Shown here piece after piece: positions 25,611 through 33,981 of a stretch of DNA of 33,981 nucleotides. The position numbers and the translations under genes were made by a program. Every line of letters begins with the position of its first letter. The first letter of the stretch is position 1. Under the pieces are notes generated by a model. It made no database searches and had not been told where the DNA came from. It saw only the letters and a list, made by a program, of their open reading frames with translations. This stretch comes from a virus. Lineage: Duplodnaviria; Heunggongvirae; Uroviricota; Caudoviricetes. The stretch lies in the IMG/VR virus record IMGVR_UViG_2563366983_000010; one strand, given 5' to 3'.

Positions 25611-26023
25611 GGGAAACCTCCATACAGATAACGCTGAAGACAGAGCAGACCGCCGCAACAACCACCACACAGCCAGAACACCGGATGCACCGGTGACATC
25701 ATCATCAGCGTGCTGAAGACGCAGCAGAAATATCCCAGCGCCCAGACCACCCATGACCACACGATAATGTGGCGACCAAAAGCCCGGTAACGGACCTCAG
25801 GCAGCAGGCGAAATGGCACATTCCCGAGGCTTGCGCTGTATGAAAACAACACCACCCCGGCAAAGGACAACAACATCAACACGAACGATCGCCAGCCACA
25901 TAACATGCTGATGATGAACATGCAGAGTGTCAGTCCGGCCAGCGGCCATGGGGTTCTCATCAGTCGGGAACAAAGCAGCCAGTCACACAGTTTTAAAATT
26001 TTGTTCATTACCTTTTTCCACAT
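25598..26023 (-). CDS. Polytopic Cys-rich membrane protein (holin candidate or membrane moron)
   Basis: Start at Met58 of ORF 25598..26194 (MWKKVMNKILKL...), 141 aa with about four hydrophobic segments and many Cys. Confidence 0.4.
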   Translation of the reverse strand: MWKKVMNKILKLCDWLLCSRLMRTPWPLAGLTLCMFIISMLCGWRSFVLMLLSFAGVVLFSYSASLGNVPFRLLPEVRYRAFGRHIIVWSWVVWALGYFCCVFSTLMMMSPVHPVFWLCGGCCGGLLCLQRYLYGGFPWIR

Positions 26024-26234
26024 TGAATTTTTCCCTGTACTTCTGGCACTGCCAGAAAATGTCCCGTGTATCCACGGAGTTCCAGCCACGCATGTAGTAG
26101 CTGGCGTGTGTGCCGTCATGGCCGGTATAGTCCAGCGGTTTCGGAGGCGGGCCTCCGGCCATGCGGTGTAAAACCTCCTGACGCAGGCGGTCACGCCGCC
26201 CGGCTTTCAGGGAGGCGTCCCAGCCTTTGCCCAT
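25983..26234 (-). CDS. Hypothetical hydrophilic protein (83 aa)
   Basis: ATG one nt after the endolysin stop, with GGGGG RBS; overlaps the start of the membrane-protein gene in another frame. Confidence 0.3.
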   Translation of the reverse strand: MGKGWDASLKAGRRDRLRQEVLHRMAGGPPPKPLDYTGHDGTHASYYMRGWNSVDTRDIFWQCQKYREKFNVEKGNEQNFKTV

Positions 26235-26923: not shown

Positions 26924-27403
26924 CTACTCATCTCCTTTGATGGAGCAATCTATTACCATATCGTTACCCATCTTGAGAAATTTGGTTTGCATGAGAAAAC
27001 CCTGTATCACGTCAGTTAACCCATACCCTTCAACTTTTGTAGCTGAAACTACCATGTCAATAATTCGTTTCTGCTGCTTCTCTGTTAGTTCACCAATTGC
27101 TGACTCTGCAACCCGCGAGCATGCTACAAAGGAAGACAACACACCTGAAGGATTGTTTTCAAAATCCTTTACAGTCGTCCTTGAGCTGACGACTTTATTA
27201 TTGATCGTAAATACCCCGAATTTGCTGTGAGCAGTTTCAGTTCCACCGTTCTTAATAGAATCGCCTCCCTTAAGAGGCATCCAGCTATTTAGTGCAATGA
27301 AATCTTTTTCTGTCAGACGTTTTTTGATGACATCTTCAGCTGGCAACTTTGCCGCATTAGCGCAAAATACGCTCAGTAAAAGTATAAGAGGAAAGTATTT
27401 CAT
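26924..27403 (-). CDS. Secreted/periplasmic protein with cleavable signal peptide, unknown function (159 aa)
   Basis: N-terminus MKYFPLILLLSVFCANA-AKLP is a classic Sec signal peptide. ATG overlaps the stop of the Mor-family gene (ATGA); AT-rich relative to neighbours; followed by the terminator hairpin. Confidence 0.6.
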   Translation of the reverse strand: MKYFPLILLLSVFCANAAKLPAEDVIKKRLTEKDFIALNSWMPLKGGDSIKNGGTETAHSKFGVFTINNKVVSSRTTVKDFENNPSGVLSSFVACSRVAESAIGELTEKQQKRIIDMVVSATKVEGYGLTDVIQGFLMQTKFLKMGNDMVIDCSIKGDE

Positions 27404-27810
27404 GACTCATCCTTAAACAGTTGCATTTGATATTTTCCACGCTCCAGCCTTCGCATTCTTTTGATAGCTTGATATACCGTTTTGTATGTCACTTTGTAAC
27501 GCTGCACCAGTTCCGCTACGTTTTTCCCATCAAAATCACGCCAGATGCGCATGTCTCTGATAAGATTTTCCAGTATTTTCCCTTTAGGAACATATACCTG
27601 AATCCCACCGATATGATTACAAATCGCCACTACCAACTCAAGGGAATAGACCGGGTTAACCCCAAGCCTTATCAGTTCCTGTCGCAACAGAGCATTCAGC
27701 TCTGAAAGTAGCGCCGGATAAACATATTTTTCCTGATAATCGTGAAGATATTCCAGAACGGTGTCGTCCCGGAAGTCTTCGAATAAATCCTGCTCTTTCA
27801 TCTGTTTCAT
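27400..27810 (-). CDS. mor: Mor/C-family transcription activator (middle/late gene activator)
   Basis: 136 aa with C-terminal helix-turn-helix (NVAELVQRYKVTYKTVYQAIKRMRRL); ATGA-coupled to gemA as mor is in Mu. Whether it acts as Mor, C, or both cannot be decided from sequence. Confidence 0.7.
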   Translation of the reverse strand: MKQMKEQDLFEDFRDDTVLEYLHDYQEKYVYPALLSELNALLRQELIRLGVNPVYSLELVVAICNHIGGIQVYVPKGKILENLIRDMRIWRDFDGKNVAELVQRYKVTYKTVYQAIKRMRRLERGKYQMQLFKDES

Positions 27811-28358
27811 ACAGCAATTCTCCCGCTGTTTCGTGCGCGGGCATACGCACTGGTCAGTGCATCATAGCCGCGCAGCTCCCGACCGGTTTCGCTCACAGGT
27901 AAAGGCACACCATGTCGGGCAAAGGCTTCACGGATGCAGCGCATATGCCACTGTTTGAGCGTTTCGAGCACAACCTGCAACGATTCCCCGTGACACCAGG
28001 CCAGTGTGGAAACCCCCTGACCGCCATTACGTCTGGCCGTCAGGCGCTCAACGTATTTGTCCAGCGCGGCGTCGCTGATATCGGAAACGAAACCATCAAG
28101 GAACATCTGCTGCCAGATTTTGTAAATCTTCTCGCGTGGTGTGACATGCCCCTTAAAGCGACGGCGGGGATGTTTTTTCTGCTTCTTAAAACCGCGCTTT
28201 TTCATGGCATCGAGCACTTGTTCCAGTTGTGCAACGGACAGCTCGCGGCAACTGGTTTTGCCCGTGCACTGCACCAGAAAAGCTCGGTAAGTGTCATCGT
28301 CGAGTTGCAACTCCCGACGGGCAACATGAATTAATTTAATCAGGGATGTGCGGCTCAT
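27807..28358 (-). CDS. gemA: GemA-like early protein (Mu gp16 family)
   Basis: Start at Met16 of ORF 27807..28403 (MSRTSLIKLIHVARRELQLDDDTYRAF), AAGGAG RBS; sits directly upstream of the Mor-family gene. Confidence 0.65.
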   Translation of the reverse strand: MSRTSLIKLIHVARRELQLDDDTYRAFLVQCTGKTSCRELSVAQLEQVLDAMKKRGFKKQKKHPRRRFKGHVTPREKIYKIWQQMFLDGFVSDISDAALDKYVERLTARRNGGQGVSTLAWCHGESLQVVLETLKQWHMRCIREAFARHGVPLPVSETGRELRGYDALTSAYARARNSGRIAV

Positions 28359-28725
28359 TATGTCCCATCTCCTTAATGCAGTGTTTTTCGACCCATGCCA
28401 CACGAGCAGAATTCAGGTGACATCTGCCAAGTCTGCATTCCTCATGATAGTGCGCTCTACTTTCATTGAAAGGTAATAATTCATCCAACTCGTTCGCGAT
28501 AAAATCTGCACGTAATTGTTCTAATATATCTTCGGTATCCACTCCGATTTCGTCAAAATAACGACAAGCATTTGCACATAATCCTGAATATTGAACAAAT
28601 ATTTCACCCTCTGTTTCTGGTGCACCATTTTTTAACCACTGGTTATAGGCAACATAAAAATCATAAAGATGTTTTCTGGTGCTGGCGGATGTGGATTTAA
28701 TTTCATTTTTCTCTGCGTTATTCAT
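28336..28725 (-). CDS. Hypothetical early protein, Cys/His-rich C-terminus (129 aa)
   Basis: Start at Met12 of ORF 28336..28758 with AAGAGG RBS at 9-nt spacing; C-terminal HYHEECRLGRCH...HC could bind metal. Confidence 0.45.
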   Translation of the reverse strand: MNNAEKNEIKSTSASTRKHLYDFYVAYNQWLKNGAPETEGEIFVQYSGLCANACRYFDEIGVDTEDILEQLRADFIANELDELLPFNESRAHYHEECRLGRCHLNSARVAWVEKHCIKEMGHNEPHIPD

Positions 28726-28900
28726 TTCGTAATACCTCTTCGCAATAAAAGATTTCACTGGGATAATGTTTTTGTATGCGCTCCATCACCTGCATACAGG
28801 CCTGCTCTGTGGGCCAGATTTTTTCCGTTACCGGGATGGCATCGCAGGCATCATTCCCGCAGGTGCCAACCAGCAGGACAAAGCCAATTGACTTAACCAT
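28718..28900 (-). CDS. Small Cys-rich protein with hydrophobic N-terminus (60 aa)
   Basis: Start at Met23 of ORF 28718..28966 (MVKSIGFVLLVGTCGNDACD...); possible signal or lipoprotein-like leader; six Cys. Confidence 0.35.
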   Translation of the reverse strand: MVKSIGFVLLVGTCGNDACDAIPVTEKIWPTEQACMQVMERIQKHYPSEIFYCEEVLRNE

Positions 28901-29432
28901 GCTCGCTGACTTCCTGTGTTGTCGCCGGAACCGGTGAATAATCAAGAATGAGATAACGCACCACATGGTCGGTGATATTCCAGCCGCTTAAACTGCAAAT
29001 AAAACGCCCCAGCCGTAAATCGATATGCGCCATCGCAAAACGAGGCATTCCCTGTTTGCACATCTCGTCATCCACTTCTGCAACGATGTGAACCGACTCG
29101 CAGGTCAGTACGCCTGTCGCAAATTCTTTTGCCAGTGCCGGAATGGCGTTGCTTTCCAGCCAGGGCAACGAACGACGGAACGTGCACCATTTAGCATCAT
29201 CAACAGCGGGTTGCTCCGTTGCGTTTCGTCTTACTGGCGGCGTCTGACGAGGGCGCGGAACGTCATAAAATCCGTTGCTTTCAGTGAGAACTCCGGCATC
29301 AACCGCATCACGCAGGAAATACACCATTGAGGAAGGTGGCATATTCATTTTTTCAGCCAGAACGCCACAGGTCAGACGCCCGTAAGCCCGTAATAATGTG
29401 CTGACACCGTTCAGAACTTTTGCATCAACCAT
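28893..29432 (-). CDS. Hypothetical early protein with N-terminal winged-helix-like region (179 aa)
   Basis: ATG at 29430-29432 with AAGGA RBS; N-terminal TLLRAYGRLTCGVLAEKMNMPPSSMVYFLRDAVDAGVL resembles a wHTH. Confidence 0.5.
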   Translation of the reverse strand: MVDAKVLNGVSTLLRAYGRLTCGVLAEKMNMPPSSMVYFLRDAVDAGVLTESNGFYDVPRPRQTPPVRRNATEQPAVDDAKWCTFRRSLPWLESNAIPALAKEFATGVLTCESVHIVAEVDDEMCKQGMPRFAMAHIDLRLGRFICSLSGWNITDHVVRYLILDYSPVPATTQEVSEHG

Positions 29433-29530
29433 TTTTTATTCCTTAGTAATCTGTTTCAGGCGCGAGCAATCCCCTGACGCATCGCGCCATAATTAAAAGA
29501 AAGTGAACTAATTAAATATTAATGGTGATA

Positions 29531-30055
29531 TTAAATACCGGCTTCCTGTTCAAACGGAATAATAGAAAAATCTTCAATGCCTGATTTAACTGTAATTCCG
29601 GCAACACCTGCGACCGCTTTCGGTTCCAGTAAAATCGCTTCCTTGTTGATTTCCTGTTTCGTGCGAATAAAGCGTTGCAGGCCAAGACGCTCCAGTGTTT
29701 CCATCACCGCATCCACACCGCGAATATTTACTGATGGTGGGCGCTGACGCCATGACACATCGCCGGTTACCAGATTTGCCGTCTTCACCTTACCGCCGTT
29801 CGTCAGTTCGTCACGGTTCGCTTCACACCATCCCTGAACGCCTTTTGAAAGGGTTTCAATGCTGGTTTTAAGCGGCGTAATCTGTGAGGCGTATTTCTCA
29901 GTAATTTCAGCGATAGCGTCATTCATTTCCGTTTCAAGTCGTGCCGCTTCGCGTTGCAGGTCACCAATCCGGCGAATATCACACATCACTGCATCGCGGG
30001 ACTGTGGAACATAAGCCGCTGCGGCGTTCTTGATTCGTTTTACTGGTCTAGCCAT
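29531..30055 (-). CDS. gam: Gam host-nuclease inhibitor (Ku-like DNA end-binding protein)
   Basis: 174 aa, near-identical over most of its length to Mu Gam as I recall it (e.g. GWCEANRDELTNGGKVKTANLVTGDVSWR, KEAILLEPKAVAGVAGITVKSGIEDFSIIPFEQEAGI). Confidence 0.9.
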   Translation of the reverse strand: MARPVKRIKNAAAAYVPQSRDAVMCDIRRIGDLQREAARLETEMNDAIAEITEKYASQITPLKTSIETLSKGVQGWCEANRDELTNGGKVKTANLVTGDVSWRQRPPSVNIRGVDAVMETLERLGLQRFIRTKQEINKEAILLEPKAVAGVAGITVKSGIEDFSIIPFEQEAGI

Positions 30056-30923: not shown

Positions 30924-31862
30924 TTACGTGCGCAGCAGGGTTGAAATATCAACGTCCAGGTCTAATTCACGGAAAGCCTGACGCAGATAATTTTCATTAA
31001 CACGATCGCCTTTACCGTAGGCTGTCATGGCCGCAAGGCGCAGCGAGTGATTCAGGATACGAAGCGCACCTGGTTTTTGTGCAATCTGTTGTAATAATTC
31101 CCGCTCGTTTTCGCCGGTAATTTGCCAGGCATCCGCAATGGCTTTTACATCGTCAATTTTGGTTTTATTGATTGCCGTCCGTTTGGCAATACGGGAAAAC
31201 AGGCGGGCAAATTCAACCGTTCTGTTACCACCGGTCATGTTTGAATAAACGCGGTGATTCCCCATCAGAACAAGACCAATACGGGCGGACTCCTGTAACA
31301 GGCGGAGTTCTTCCAGAACCTCAGCGCCAAGATGATCAGCTTCGTCGATAATGACCAGCCCCTGCGTACCTTCAAGACGGCGTCTCAAAGCGCGGGAGAG
31401 TGGCCCCTTACGGCGCGGTGCGTCATTCATTCCCAGTTCATAAGCCAGTTCAGTCAGGCATTCCAGAACACTGGCACAGGATGGGGTAATGGTGATCATC
31501 CAGACATTGTTATTGGTGCGACGAAATTCGCGGGCCGCTTCAGTTTTTCCCACTCCTGGATTACCACAGATAACAGAAATACTTTCAGTCAGGCTGGCAA
31601 AACGCATACTTGTCCAGATTTGGCGGACCGTTCTGGTTTCCACAAAACGCGGGGGTTCTGGCAGTTCTGCGGCGCGGTGATAGTTCTCCAGCCAGCGTTC
31701 AAGAGACTGCGCGACACGTTCATTGTCGCCGTTGTACTTGTCATTCACGAATGCGCTTAACGTTCCTGCGGCCACCCCAGACTCGCGGGCGATTTGTGCA
31801 TAAGTTGTTTTTTCATTTTCTACAAGCGTGCGCAGTCCTGCACGAATATCGGAAATATTCAT
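30924..31862 (-). CDS. B: Transposition ATPase / target DNA activator B (MuB, AAA+)
   Basis: 312 aa; [17 protein letters not shown]-terminus with HTH, Walker A (GNPGVGKTE) and Walker B ([10 protein letters not shown]); closely matches Mu B as recalled. Confidence 0.9.
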
Positions 31863-31899: not shown

Positions 31900-33981
31900 T
31901 TAAATGGCTTTTTTACGTCTGTTCTGTTCCAGAATATCCAGTGAATTATTCAGATATTCGTCGCGGTCGCTTTCATATTCATCGTCCGGTTCATCTGCCA
32001 GCACTGGCACGACTTTCTCCACTGGTCTGTAGACGTTGCTGAACAACCCGTTGCCTGTAACAGGAGCTGGCAGTGTTCGGGTATTCTCTGCCTCGGCCAG
32101 TCTGATTTTTTCCTCTCCGCGCTGACGCATCCCTTTGATACGCTGCTGGCGCTGATGGTATTCCGCAGTGACCGGGAATGCCTGCTGTTTATTGCCATCC
32201 CAGACAGCCTCACAGATATAGGAACCGTCCATGCGGCGGATAATTACTTTTGTTGCATCATGAATATCGTAATTCACCAGCACCTTATTACCGTGCTCAT
32301 ATTCCAGGTCAGTTGAATAATAAATATTATTAAACAGCCTGACTTCACAGCGGTTGACTGTACGTTCAATCTGGGGCATAAACATTTCACGCAGTTCAAG
32401 GTCGGACAACCATTCGATTTCCGTCGCTTCTTTTTCCAGTTTGTAGCGTCGGAACTGCGCCGGGGTGTAATGTTCACCGTTTCCACGTAGTGGTAGCGAA
32501 CTATGCGGACGGTTGTTGTACCATTCCACACCAGCTTCAATAGCAGCAATAAGTTCATTCCATGACGGCAGGTTTTTTAAAGCCTGCCGTTGTTTTTCAG
32601 TCAGCTCCCGTCCTTTGTTTGCCGCATTTGTTGCAGATATCAGAGCCTTTGTCGTCCGGCGAACCGTTCCACGGTCGGCACCGGTGCCATAATACGTGGC
32701 AAACTGGCGTGATATGCGCATAGCCAGAGTACGGTTCAGACGCTCTATAATCCCTCGCCCTTGCGGGTTTTCCGGTATACCAAGACGGTGATCAATTCCA
32801 AGACGCGGTAAGACACCCGTAATATCAGCATCGAACGTGTTATTGGTTTCACCGCCGCCATTATCTGAATAATAGATATACGGTTTGCCGTGATTTTTTA
32901 TTCCGTGGCGTAACGCATCAGCAACAGCAACCACACTTTCAGAAAGTGCCAGACTCCAGCCCACAATAAAGCGGCAACTGCCGTCCATGATAAAGGTGAC
33001 TTCTGGGGAAAATGGATTGCCGTGATCAGGATGTGCCACTTTCATCTTCATGCCGTGACCATCACCAATCCAGGCATAATTTACCGGTAAAGATAACCAG
33101 TCCCGACGCACGAAGCCTTCATACTGCCGGAACTCGCTGCCTGTAACGCGCCCACGTTGTTTCACAACAACCGGGAGTTTGTTCATGGCATAGCAAACCT
33201 GATCATACGACGGCAGTGCTGCACACATCGCAGGATTGTCCTGATGCACTTCATACCATTCCGCAGCAAAATCATCATAAGCCTCTCGTATTCCGCACCC
33301 GTTCGGACGGCGGTAAAAGCGAAGAAACTCTGGTAACCAGCGAATCTGGTCTGGTTTTATGGGCTGACGTTTGCCTGGTGCCAGCATGATCAGACGTTCA
33401 GCCGGAGTGGTTGCTTTTTTAAAATCAGCAATCCAGCGTTTCAGTGATATTTCACTAAGGGAGCGCAAAGAACCTTTTTTCGCGTTCGCAGTTGCAACGG
33501 TTTCCACCAGGTGTGCCGGTAACTCACCGTTTTGAGCCTGTTTCACAAACTCACGGATAGCGGCGGCCTGGCTGATTCCTGGTAGTTCACAAACGCGCAA
33601 AACTTCGCTGACAATCGCAATCCGGGCATCCGCTGTTTCTTTTTGCGTAGCGGTTAACGTTCCGAGTTTCTGCTCAAACAGCGCAGGACATTTGCGGTAA
33701 ACCGCAATTTTGCCGTCTTCACGTTTTTTTAAACGCGGAGATTCAGGTTCTTTTGCCTCAGTTGCTGGCTGATTCATTAACGCCTTAATCTGGCGAGCCT
33801 GTAACGCCTTACGCGCCACATCAGGCAAACAGTCGACATGGAACTCAAAAGCCTTTGTCCCTGCACGCTTACGCATCATTCCTTCTGATTCGCCGCAATA
33901 ACGGCGCAATGCTTCCCGAATTCCTTTAATTGTTTTTGGTAATCCTGGTACACCGACCAGCTCTTTGGCGAGAACAAACAT
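31900..33981 (-). CDS. A: DDE transposase A (MuA family), apparently complete
   Basis: 693 aa. N-terminal GLPKT motif as in MuA domain I; WIGDGHG (DDE Asp region); C-terminal DDEYESDRDEYLNNSLDILEQNRRKKAI matches the MuA C-terminal tail. ATG at 33979-33981 is the last codon of the window. Confidence 0.85.
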   Translation of the reverse strand: MFVLAKELVGVPGLPKTIKGIREALRRYCGESEGMMRKRAGTKAFEFHVDCLPDVARKALQARQIKALMNQPATEAKEPESPRLKKREDGKIAVYRKCPALFEQKLGTLTATQKETADARIAIVSEVLRVCELPGISQAAAIREFVKQAQNGELPAHLVETVATANAKKGSLRSLSEISLKRWIADFKKATTPAERLIMLAPGKRQPIKPDQIRWLPEFLRFYRRPNGCGIREAYDDFAAEWYEVHQDNPAMCAALPSYDQVCYAMNKLPVVVKQRGRVTGSEFRQYEGFVRRDWLSLPVNYAWIGDGHGMKMKVAHPDHGNPFSPEVTFIMDGSCRFIVGWSLALSESVVAVADALRHGIKNHGKPYIYYSDNGGGETNNTFDADITGVLPRLGIDHRLGIPENPQGRGIIERLNRTLAMRISRQFATYYGTGADRGTVRRTTKALISATNAANKGRELTEKQRQALKNLPSWNELIAAIEAGVEWYNNRPHSSLPLRGNGEHYTPAQFRRYKLEKEATEIEWLSDLELREMFMPQIERTVNRCEVRLFNNIYYSTDLEYEHGNKVLVNYDIHDATKVIIRRMDGSYICEAVWDGNKQQAFPVTAEYHQRQQRIKGMRQRGEEKIRLAEAENTRTLPAPVTGNGLFSNVYRPVEKVVPVLADEPDDEYESDRDEYLNNSLDILEQNRRKKAI

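Follow-up and report, generated by a model that had tools for sequence, protein, structure and literature searches.

Between gam and gemA of a Mu-like E. coli prophage lie three small open reading frames, and the question is whether these are unrecognized accessory genes and what their products might do for the phage. The window, i.e., the whole stretch of 33,981 nucleotides analyzed here, is such a prophage, and its early operon is read from the minus strand. Mu's semi-essential (SE) region shares one early transcript with A and B, and its deletion restored the viability of the host after infection (PMC3325207). The function of most Mu SE genes is unknown (PMC3820752). A reading made earlier from the sequence alone had assigned the three genes to this semi-essential early region, an assignment that is supported. 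The three back-to-back frames (179, 60, and 129 aa) lie at 28336–29432 on the minus strand. It had furthermore described all three as unrecognized. The features discussed below are as follows.

27807–28358, minus strand: gemA (gp16 family), downstream context gene (Pfam GemA 1.1e-32; 81% aa identity to Mu GemA)
28336–28725, minus strand: gene of the 129-aa protein, with a predicted five-helix domain at residues ~18–116 (phrog_6418 1.5e-42, phrog_2510 1e-30)
28359–28695, minus strand: low-GC core of the 129-aa gene, acquired horizontally, between two recombination junctions (from junctions, GC, rarity, and dS)
28718–28900, minus strand: gene of a 60-aa four-cysteine mini-protein, mobile cargo (phrog_16556 8e-28)
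28893–29432, minus strand: 179-aa gene, ortholog of Mu gp11 and core Muvirus early gene (Pfam PF25754 Gp11_C 4.8e-35; phrog_1949 1.3e-99)
29459–29488, minus strand: conserved GC-rich inverted repeat, a hairpin without a T-run (arms 29459–29465 and 29482–29488)
29531–30055, minus strand: gam, host-nuclease inhibitor, upstream context gene (Pfam Phage_Mu_Gam 8.6e-43; 90% aa identity to Mu Gam)

Gene content of the locus

The three frames are closely packed. The start of the 60-aa gene lies over the stop of the 179-aa gene (overlap ATGGTTAA), the 60-aa and 129-aa genes overlap as well (ATGAATAA), and the 129-aa frame runs 23 nt over the start of gemA. Each of the three ATGs has a Shine-Dalgarno-like motif upstream. 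The lengths of the two smaller proteins were counted from these ATGs; the mechanical ORF list holds a longer version of the first (82 aa), and the second would reach 140 aa from an upstream GTG.

Since all three frames match PHROG families and their dN/dS against E. coli alleles is low (0.15 for the 179-aa gene, 0.09–0.52 for the 60-aa gene, and 0.25–0.30 for the 129-aa gene), they are evidently real genes and not chance ORFs, and the same ratios indicate purifying selection on each of them. The two smaller genes were already contained in PHROG families 16556 and 6418/2510, so they had not gone unrecognized; the matches span residues 2–59 and 13–123, respectively, and the families are annotated as 'unknown function'. 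None of the three corresponds to a conserved Mu gene with a known housekeeping function.

The 179-aa protein

The 179-aa gene is orthologous to Mu gp11 (Mup11, NP_050615), which has a Pfam family of its own, and the label 'unrecognized' was wrong for it. The Gp11_C domain (PF25754) was matched with 120.2 bits against a Pfam gathering cut-off of 27, with all of the profile covered (positions 1–78 of 78). Amino acid identity to Mu gp11 amounts to 86% over residues 1–176, end to end, and the DNA of the gene is 88% identical to Mu. The two share the same domain and the same place directly after gam, behind a 98-nt spacer with the same conserved hairpin upstream, and differ in that the 179-aa protein carries three extra C-terminal residues. 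The last part of the gene departs from Mu: the DNA match stops ~35 nt before the gp11 stop (about 28927), at the start of a foreign cassette.

Homologs of constant length numbered 211 in E. coli and Salmonella, and the gene is present in 318 of the 5426 complete E. coli genomes. The protein is laid out as a highly conserved N-terminal part of ~60 aa, a variable linker, and the Gp11_C domain. Its N-terminus resembled the Pfam families HTH_10, HTH_24, HTH_20, and HTH_CodY below threshold (E 0.026–0.2), and no match was obtained in the PDB, either with the sequence or with the family profile. The protein may consist of two domains with a winged-helix-like head, for which these sub-threshold matches are the only basis, and its target in early lytic growth would be DNA or a factor of the host or the phage. 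Our literature searches, which covered gp11, Mup11–15, the Mu early region, and the accessions of the PHROG and Pfam families, found no functional study of these genes. The annotation is corrected to the extent that one of the supposed unknowns turns out to be gp11 of Mu, a model phage, and belongs to the core genes of Muvirus.

Gene exchange between gp11 and gemA

The 60-aa and 129-aa proteins had no homolog among the early proteins of Mu and SfMu in BLASTP searches (best E = 5). They resemble Mu gp12–gp15 in their location between gp11 and gemA, in their orientation (Mu gp15 excepted), and in being small accessory proteins, but not in sequence, for which no similarity to gp12, gp13, gp14, or gp15 was detectable (E > 1). 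Mu gp13 is likewise a Cys-rich protein of 60 aa; it has CxxC pairs, whereas the 60-aa protein lacks them and shows a C-x4-C ... C-x17-C spacing. At least six gene contents of the gp11–gemA slot were found, including the following.

Mu and SfMu: in Mu, gp12–gp15
The window, RM9088, and RM11911: in the window, the 60-aa and 129-aa genes
TD225-C4: the 129-aa gene alone
cS51a: the 60-aa gene with gp14-like and gp15-like genes
JCKP02: the domain of the 129-aa protein joined to the Mu gp13 zinc ribbon in one protein of 231 aa

The comparison indicates that the block consists of the conserved Muvirus gp11 and a replaceable cargo of two genes in the slot that Mu fills with gp12–gp15. The two cargo genes are independent modules: some sister prophages have both, some have neither, and others have just the 60-aa or just the 129-aa gene. 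We discarded the idea of a functional pairing of the two, since either gene is found where its neighbor is missing. Among the 5426 complete E. coli genomes, the 60-aa gene is present in 49 and the body of the 129-aa gene in only 14.

The composition of the cargo is foreign. The GC content averages 0.54 over the window; the 129-aa gene, at 0.39 (GC3 0.32), ranks in the lowest 0.5% of 390-nt windows, and the 60-aa gene has 0.46, so that the AT-rich stretch pointed out by the sequence-only reading was confirmed. Comparison with the Mu early region, a check that the same reading had proposed, showed these two of the three to be lineage-specific and gp11 to be conserved.

The borders of the foreign DNA could be placed. 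On the right, the foreign DNA starts only after ~9 codons of the 129-aa ORF, and these codons are common to the gp14-like gene of sister prophages; the left junction falls at the ribosome-binding site and ATG of gemA. The 129-aa gene therefore retains the first ~9 codons of the resident gp14-like gene and ends at the gemA ribosome-binding site, and both cargo genes were brought in by recombination at gene boundaries. Within the 129-aa gene, dS is ~1.0 in the central codons 40–100 and 0.13–0.41 toward the ends. Positive selection on the variable center was rejected, given a dN/dS of 0.23–0.32 there; together with the dS of ~1, this ratio points to replacement by an old, divergent allele, and the central segment has evidently been swapped again between alleles.

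These results map the gp11–gemA interval as a recombination hot spot where in-frame exchange of modules takes place at the starts of genes. The case is one of ordinary phage mosaicism with one moderately interesting uncharacterized domain, and it leaves the current understanding as it stands. Taken as a whole, the explanation that we prefer, i.e., a Mu-like early operon with gp11 and a swappable two-gene cargo, together with the molecular roles suggested for their products, is on balance likely.

The 60-aa protein

The four cysteines of the 60-aa protein (C14, C19, C35, and C53) keep an invariant C-x4-C-x15-C-x17-C spacing in all 10 homologs compared, which gives the family four invariant potential metal-ligand residues. 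Temperate phages of Yersinia, Aeromonas, and Hafnia encode homologs in their early-left operons, and further homologs were found in E. coli, Salmonella, Cronobacter, and Tatumella. We suggest that the protein is a small cytoplasmic domain which the four cysteines would stabilize, in all likelihood by forming a zinc site. Its hydrophobic N-terminus and a relative that bears the name 'Secreted protein' leave some doubt about the location in the cytoplasm.

Alternatively, the protein could be exported or anchored in the membrane as an envelope protein, with its leader acting as a signal or lipoprotein peptide and its cysteines paired in two disulfides, and serve superinfection exclusion or envelope modification. 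We regard this as possible, if rather unlikely. Hydrophobicity peaks in the first 11 residues of the protein (KD 2.2), a cysteine follows the hydrophobic run in every homolog, one relative of 66 aa is called 'Secreted protein' in UniRef, and the Tatumella and Yersinia homologs carry VSAC and VSSC, which resemble a lipobox. However, a PROSITE-type lipoprotein rule, which combines the lipobox pattern with a Cys at 15–35 and a K/R in the first seven residues, was satisfied in full by none of the 10 family members. Specifically, the first Cys is found at 12–14 in 9 of the 10, short of the required range, a T or P stands at position −1 in 8 (in the window protein, V-G-T precedes Cys14), and K/R is absent from the first seven residues in 4. 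Furthermore, the leader comprises just 11–14 residues, and other phages carry the gene in cytoplasmic recombination and early operons. The 'hydrophobic leader' proposed from the sequence alone is thus real as a short hydrophobic N-terminus and failed as a lipoprotein signal in all 10 homologs. A small cytoplasmic, probably zinc-binding domain is the reading that we retain.

The 129-aa protein and its domain

A word-indexed protein search returned only close relatives of the 129-aa protein, and the family became visible in an exhaustive HMMER search (E ≤ 1e-3), in which 674 protein clusters, of temperate as well as virulent phages, contained the all-helical domain of ~100 aa. Separately, 235 phage records matched. 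The AF2 model of the 129-aa protein is confident (pLDDT 87.7); an earlier prediction from 5 close sequences only had reached a pLDDT of 55 and was useless. By fold, no solved structural relative of the model was found in the PDB. Sequence and profile searches of the PDB with the protein gave nothing, rows for macrophage migration inhibitory factor at E ~1 being noise, and Pfam had no family for any of 108 members of the domain family.

The domain has the signature FY.AY..W...GA ... GLC.N ... PFN ... Y..E ... H.N..R..WV. Across the 108 diverse members, W30, G48, C50, P85, F86, and R108 are invariant and Y93 and N105 near-invariant, while H103, N87, and E96 are commonly conserved. The protein had been called Cys/His-rich, which is literally correct (5 Cys and 7 His); the hint of metal binding was not borne out, as Cys50 alone of these residues is invariant in the family.

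The ~100-aa helical domain and its signature are common to PHROG 6418, 2510, and 27059, which include proteins of the lambdoid nin region, where the domain lies beside DUF551, hok, DUF968, and rusA, and the three paralogs (VOG7392) that Phapecoctavirus anhysbys encodes within an array of small early genes. Here, in a transposable phage, the domain is unfused and follows a borrowed N-terminal tag, whereas elsewhere it occurs in tandem copies or in fusions to partners such as the Mu gp13 ribbon, a Lar-like zinc ribbon, DUF551-type modules, or a dATP/dGTP pyrophosphohydrolase. A single protein is fused to the Lar restriction-alleviation domain, and one relative to the pyrophosphohydrolase domain. 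Apart from Lar, dATP/dGTP pyrophosphohydrolase, and DUF7415, Pfam and PHROGs assigned only partners of unknown function to the fused relatives.

We infer that the domain would be a non-enzymatic binder of a host protein, with a role in host takeover or counter-defense, possibly in anti-restriction. With a median pI of 5.3, the family is no more than mildly acidic, and we therefore discarded the idea of an Ocr-like DNA mimic. As a separate observation, the conserved polar residues C50, R108, N105, and Y93 (with H103, N87, and E96) could form a catalytic or ligand site, which counts against a protein-binding surface.

Along these lines, the domain might instead be a small enzyme or small-molecule binder, e.g., a hydrolase, sponge, or modifier of a nucleotide or signal molecule, with Cys50, Arg108, Asn105, Tyr93, His103, Asn87, and Glu96 making up its site. 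The invariant and near-invariant residues would suit such a function, as would the pyrophosphohydrolase fusion of one relative, and the several paralogs per genome fit variants that differ in ligand specificity; we nevertheless judge this reading to be improbable. Binding of a host protein is the function that we favor for the domain. Being widely spread in phages, confidently modeled, and without a Pfam entry, it is a reasonable candidate for functional screens.

Possible relation to host takeover and defense

Our best guess for the role of these genes is binding of host proteins, in takeover or anti-defense, and it is a guess by inference. Searches of the three proteins against PADLOC and NCBIfam gave no match at E ≤ 1 beyond chance level, and comparisons of sequence and fold with the entries of Pfam, NCBIfam, PADLOC, and the PDB brought up no functional homolog of any of them. 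Similarly, within these databases no sequence or fold similarity to characterized anti-defense proteins (anti-restriction proteins, Acr, nucleotide sponges) was found, and neither they nor the literature supplied a functional link for the three genes.

The cargo genes are like Lar/Ral-type restriction alleviation genes and other early morons in being small, non-essential, compositionally foreign, and swapped between phages. The Lar fusion mentioned above belongs to the same context, as does the position of the 60-aa family near a Lar gene in Yersinia phages. The likeness is one of context only: unlike Lar/Ral, neither the 60-aa nor the 129-aa protein has a Lar domain or matches a characterized anti-restriction protein. 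Several paralogs per virulent-phage genome, repeated recruitment to the Mu early region in different architectures, allelic replacement of the central segment, and the Lar fusion would be the marks of an arms race in which the host target varies. That the ~100-aa domain is a new, widespread phage family for counter-defense or host takeover is put forward tentatively, and we consider it unlikely.

Expression and the inverted repeat

The three genes would share one transcript from the early promoter, and their translation would be coupled. The Mu early transcript runs through the gam–gp11 gap to beyond mor. This is consistent with the account in PMC3325207.

The gap between gam and gp11 (29433–29530, 98 nt) holds the inverted repeat that had been noticed earlier, with 7-bp arms (GGCGCGA and TCGCGCC) separated by a loop of 16 nt. 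By a rough estimate, ~0.1 such repeats are expected by chance per 98 nt, and the repeat folds only marginally better than shuffled sequences (z-score −1.78); for these two reasons, the repeat alone is weak evidence. Rfam had no match in the region, a weak match to sroD (E 0.58) being due to chance.

A transcription terminator or attenuator that parts gam from the downstream accessory genes could be proposed for this site, as the repeat is intergenic, its GC-rich 7-bp stem lengthens to about 12 pairs when folded as RNA, and both arms are unchanged in seven Mu-like phages, the loop being variable. We consider this decidedly improbable. An intrinsic (Rho-independent) terminator combines a GC-rich stem, which is present, with a following T-run, which is absent (the sequence after the stem is UGAAACAG); the terminator scan made no call at the repeat, the fold is close to that of shuffles, the arms in the seven phages lack covariation, and in Mu the early transcript runs on past this point. 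Since there is no covariation, an RNA role and a DNA-site role of the repeat are indistinguishable.

Finally, the notion that the 60-aa and 129-aa ORFs are decaying remnants or selfish filler of no use to the phage, which would agree with their rarity among Mu-like prophages and the absence of one or both from sister prophages, is extremely improbable and already largely refuted by selection and conservation, as both frames are uninterrupted, have ribosome-binding sites, and are coupled through their starts and stops, dN/dS is 0.09–0.5 for the cargo genes, the 60-aa family is ~50% identical with all four cysteines kept in Yersinia and Aeromonas phages, and the domain of the 129-aa protein is kept across hundreds of phage lineages.

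Organization of the gam–gemA interval

Most of a Mu-like prophage lies within the window, and its early operon runs on the minus strand, as assigned from ORF, Pfam and PHROG matches. The features are, in gene order:

31900-33981, minus: transposase A
30924-31862, minus: B
between B and gam, early operon: Kil-like gene, then phrog_2230 gene, then gp9-like regulator
29531-30055, minus: gam
28893-29432, minus: 179-aa ORF
28718-28900, minus: 60-aa ORF
28336-28725, minus: 129-aa ORF
27807-28358, minus: gemA
27400-27810, minus: mor
after mor: 159-aa gene, then GH108 endolysin

The ATG of transposase A occupies the final three bases of the window, which therefore does not extend to the repressor, ner or the prophage left end. 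The transposase A ORF (31900-33981, minus) encodes 693 aa, compared to 663 aa in the annotated Mu A CDS. Exact copies of the 179-aa sequence were found on 50 E. coli contigs, and the best complete-genome match to window 27400-29500 is ~96% identical; these matches identify the host as E. coli or a very close relative.

The three ORFs of 179, 60 and 129 aa that the sequence-only reading placed between gam and gemA were all present on the minus strand and preceded by Shine-Dalgarno-like motifs. The stop and start codons of successive ORFs overlap (ATGGTTAA, ATGAATAA), the 129-aa ORF extends 23 nt into gemA, and the three genes are tightly packed in the early operon. Strong PHROG matches, homologs in other genomes and dN/dS values of 0.09-0.5 identify them as real genes, and purifying selection acts on all three. 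The AT-richness of the stretch was also verified, with a GC of 0.39 and a GC3 of 0.32 for the 129-aa gene versus a window mean of 0.54 (lowest 0.5% of same-size windows). The description as unrecognised genes failed for the 179-aa gene, which is Mu gp11; the other two fall into existing PHROG families of unknown function. Overall, the initial observation was confirmed and its interpretation partly supported.

In Mu, a single long early transcript spans A, B and the semi-essential early region, which comprises 14 ORFs, most without known function, and whose deletion restores host viability after infection (PMC3325207). Low-level expression in lysogens is possible (PMC3820752). The three proteins would be made early in lytic growth.

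A conserved gene followed by exchanged cargo

The gp11–gemA block is a mosaic accessory cassette in the phage early region, an ordinary and well-defined case of phage mosaicism in which a conserved gene, gp11, is combined with two independent, horizontally exchanged cargo genes. Confidence is high for this evolutionary part of the explanation and low for the functional roles proposed for gp11 and the 60-aa and 129-aa proteins.

By sequence, the 179-aa protein belongs to the Mu gp11 family, and its gene is a recognised and conserved one. It matched Pfam PF25754 (Phage Mu Gp11 C-terminal domain, 4.8e-35) and phrog_1949 (1.3e-99), residues 1-176 are 86% identical to Mu gp11, and every testable defining feature of the family was found. 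At the DNA level, the gam-to-gp11 stretch shares 88% identity with Mu, D108, SfMu and the Yersinia Mu-like phages; this match stops at about window 28927, ~35 nt before the gp11 stop codon. Homologs numbered 211 at E<=1e-3. Among the 120 listed, almost all are 174-183 aa long and from E. coli and Salmonella, and are annotated merely as hypothetical or 'Gp11 C-terminal domain-containing'. The N-terminal 60 residues are nearly invariant, the proline-rich linker is variable and the C-terminal domain is conserved. Helix-turn-helix or winged-helix matches to the N-terminus stayed sub-threshold throughout (E 0.026-0.2), and no solved structure was found with the single sequence or the family profile. 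A putative winged-helix-like head may act on DNA or on a partner protein.

At least six gene contents of the gp11–gemA slot were found among the related prophages compared.

Contents of the gp11–gemA slot in Mu-like phages and prophages
Mu: gp12, gp13, gp14, reverse-strand gp15
SfMu: one extra gene; DUF5420 gene inserted ahead of gp11
window, RM9088, RM11911: 60-aa and 129-aa genes
TD225-C4: 129-aa gene only, plus 44-nt remnant of the 60-aa gene
cS51a: 60-aa gene, then gp14-like and gp15-like genes
JCKP02: 231-aa protein, then 77-aa gene (95% identical to part of SfMu gp14), Mu gp14 homolog

The 60-aa and 129-aa proteins showed no resemblance to Mu gp12-gp15 (best E = 5). Of 5426 complete E. 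coli genomes, 318 carry gp11, 49 the 60-aa gene and 14 the body of the 129-aa gene. Between the window and cS51a, the sequence is near-identical through the 60-aa gene and ~9 codons of the next ORF and diverges completely beyond; likeness to Mu and cS51a returns exactly at the gemA ribosome-binding site. These sharp junctions indicate that the 129-aa domain was joined in frame to the opening codons of a resident gp14-like gene. The 231-aa protein of JCKP02 (L013 3292-3987) is an in-frame fusion in which an uncharacterised ~55-aa N-terminus and a copy of the 129-aa domain (61% identical) are joined to the Mu gp13 zinc ribbon. It occupies the gp12/gp13 slot and equals the phrog_6418 profile in length (231 positions); the Mu gp13 part comprises residues 5-60 of the ribbon protein (93-96% identical).

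Exchange also reached into the 129-aa gene. Among E. coli alleles, codons 40-100 (window 28426-28608) have a dS of ~1.0 at a dN/dS of 0.23-0.32, compared to a dS of 0.13-0.41 at both ends of the gene and ~0.15 in gemA. These values led us to reject positive selection and indicate that old divergent alleles have replaced the central patch, which makes it a mosaic segment within one small gene.

In Mu (L001 8163-8232), the reverse-strand gp15 and gemA are 70 nt apart, and the gap between them contains a GC-rich hairpin of its own (GGCGGTGTTGC..GCACCGCC). This gap is gone from the window, where the 129-aa ORF runs into gemA (28336-28358); any gemA-proximal Mu control element there is therefore absent.

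The gam–gp11 gap

The inverted repeat GGCGCGA/TCGCGCC seen in the sequence-only reading was located at 29459-29465 and 29482-29488, inside the 98-nt gap. Seven Mu-like phages show hardly any variation from the gam stop codon to the far end of the hairpin: neither arm differs between them, and the variation in the loop falls in its 3' half. No covariation was seen in these seven, so an RNA structure and a DNA site are indistinguishable. The RNA fold is just marginally better than that of shuffled sequence (z -1.78), and Rfam gave no match. With invariant arms, no T-run after the stem and no call from the terminator scan, the repeat is a conserved Mu feature, neither specific to this prophage nor an intrinsic terminator.

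Similarity among Mu-like phages collapses just downstream of the hairpin. The DNA from there to the gp11 start (window 29433-29458, with equivalents in SfMu, JCKP02 and RM9088) resembles a hot spot for insertions: an additional DUF5420-type gene is present at this point in SfMu and JCKP02, and RM9088 has an IS66-family element between gp11 and gam. In RM9088, the closest complete-genome relative, the annotation of gemA (L003 3408-3959) is that of a pseudogene interrupted by an internal stop, and this prophage copy is probably defective.

The cargo proteins

Neither cargo protein belongs to the Mu gp12-gp15, lipoprotein, Lar, PADLOC or NCBIfam families. The 60-aa protein matches phrog_16556 and has relatives in other genomes of E. 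coli, Salmonella, Cronobacter and Tatumella, as well as in temperate Yersinia, Aeromonas and Hafnia phages, where the homologs sit in the early-left accessory operon. They adjoin polymerase theta-subunit, Lar and methyltransferase genes in Yersinia phages, and lie between recT and xis in Aeromonas phage pAEv1818. All ten family sequences examined have exactly four cysteines in a constant C-x4-C-x15-C-x17-C spacing and share a CG.DACDA.PV.E motif. One source labels one relative 'Secreted protein'. The hydrophobic N-terminus before the first cysteine spans just 11-14 residues, and none of the ten sequences satisfied the lipoprotein rule. A small cytoplasmic cysteine-stabilised mini-domain, probably zinc-binding and with the hydrophobic start as a buried strand, is favoured, and export is less likely.

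For the 129-aa protein, a word-indexed search returned close relatives only. An exhaustive HMMER search yielded 674 clusters at E<=1e-3 (135 at E<=1e-10); among the best 150 of these, ~70% consist of a stand-alone protein no longer than 150 aa. Some relatives have extensions, others two or three tandem domain copies. By tblastn, the domain was detected in 235 phage records, the majority Escherichia phages, the remainder including Rhizobium, Achromobacter, Salmonella, Klebsiella, Erwinia, Campylobacter and Burkholderia phages. The Phapecoctavirus-type Escherichia phages at the top of the hit list have three to four copies each. Lambdoid E. coli prophages encode a 196-aa relative in the nin region, between replication genes and DUF551, hok, DUF968, rusA and Q.

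In a 108-sequence alignment, W30, G48, C50, P85, F86 and R108 are invariant and L20, F23, Y24, Y27, G34, L49, F75, Y93, N105, W111 and V112 near-invariant. One of five cysteines is conserved, so the earlier label 'Cys/His-rich' is no sign of a metal site. The AlphaFold2 model built on this alignment has five helices (pLDDT 87.7, pTM 0.78). Foldseek against the PDB gave nothing with E below 1, the viral structure library returned uncharacterised phage proteins only, and no family member matched Pfam. This helical domain, widespread, absent from Pfam, confidently modelled and with no solved relative, is the most interesting element of the block.

The domain may bind a host protein for takeover or counter-defence. 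A DNA mimic is argued against by the just mild acidity of the family (median pI 5.3). The only named fusion partners are a Lar restriction-alleviation domain (one protein), dATP/dGTP pyrophosphohydrolase plus DUF7415 (one other protein), DUF551, as sources name it, and the Mu gp13 zinc ribbon. An anti-restriction role, suggested by context and the one Lar fusion, is a low-confidence idea.

Region downstream of mor

The 159-aa gene (26924-27403, minus) follows mor, its start overlapping the mor stop. It is AT-rich (GC 0.41), matches phrog_38744 (1e-109) and has an N-terminus resembling a signal peptide (MKYFPLILLLSVFCANAAK); Mu has no counterpart at this position. A strong terminator-like hairpin with a T-run lies 3' of the gene (26903-26883, minus). 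It may mark the end of the early transcript, as the counterpart of Mu t9.2. The Mu gp18 homolog (MGKGWDASL..., 25983-26234, minus) lies downstream of the endolysin and in Mu directly after mor, a displacement which indicates that the middle region is further rearranged.
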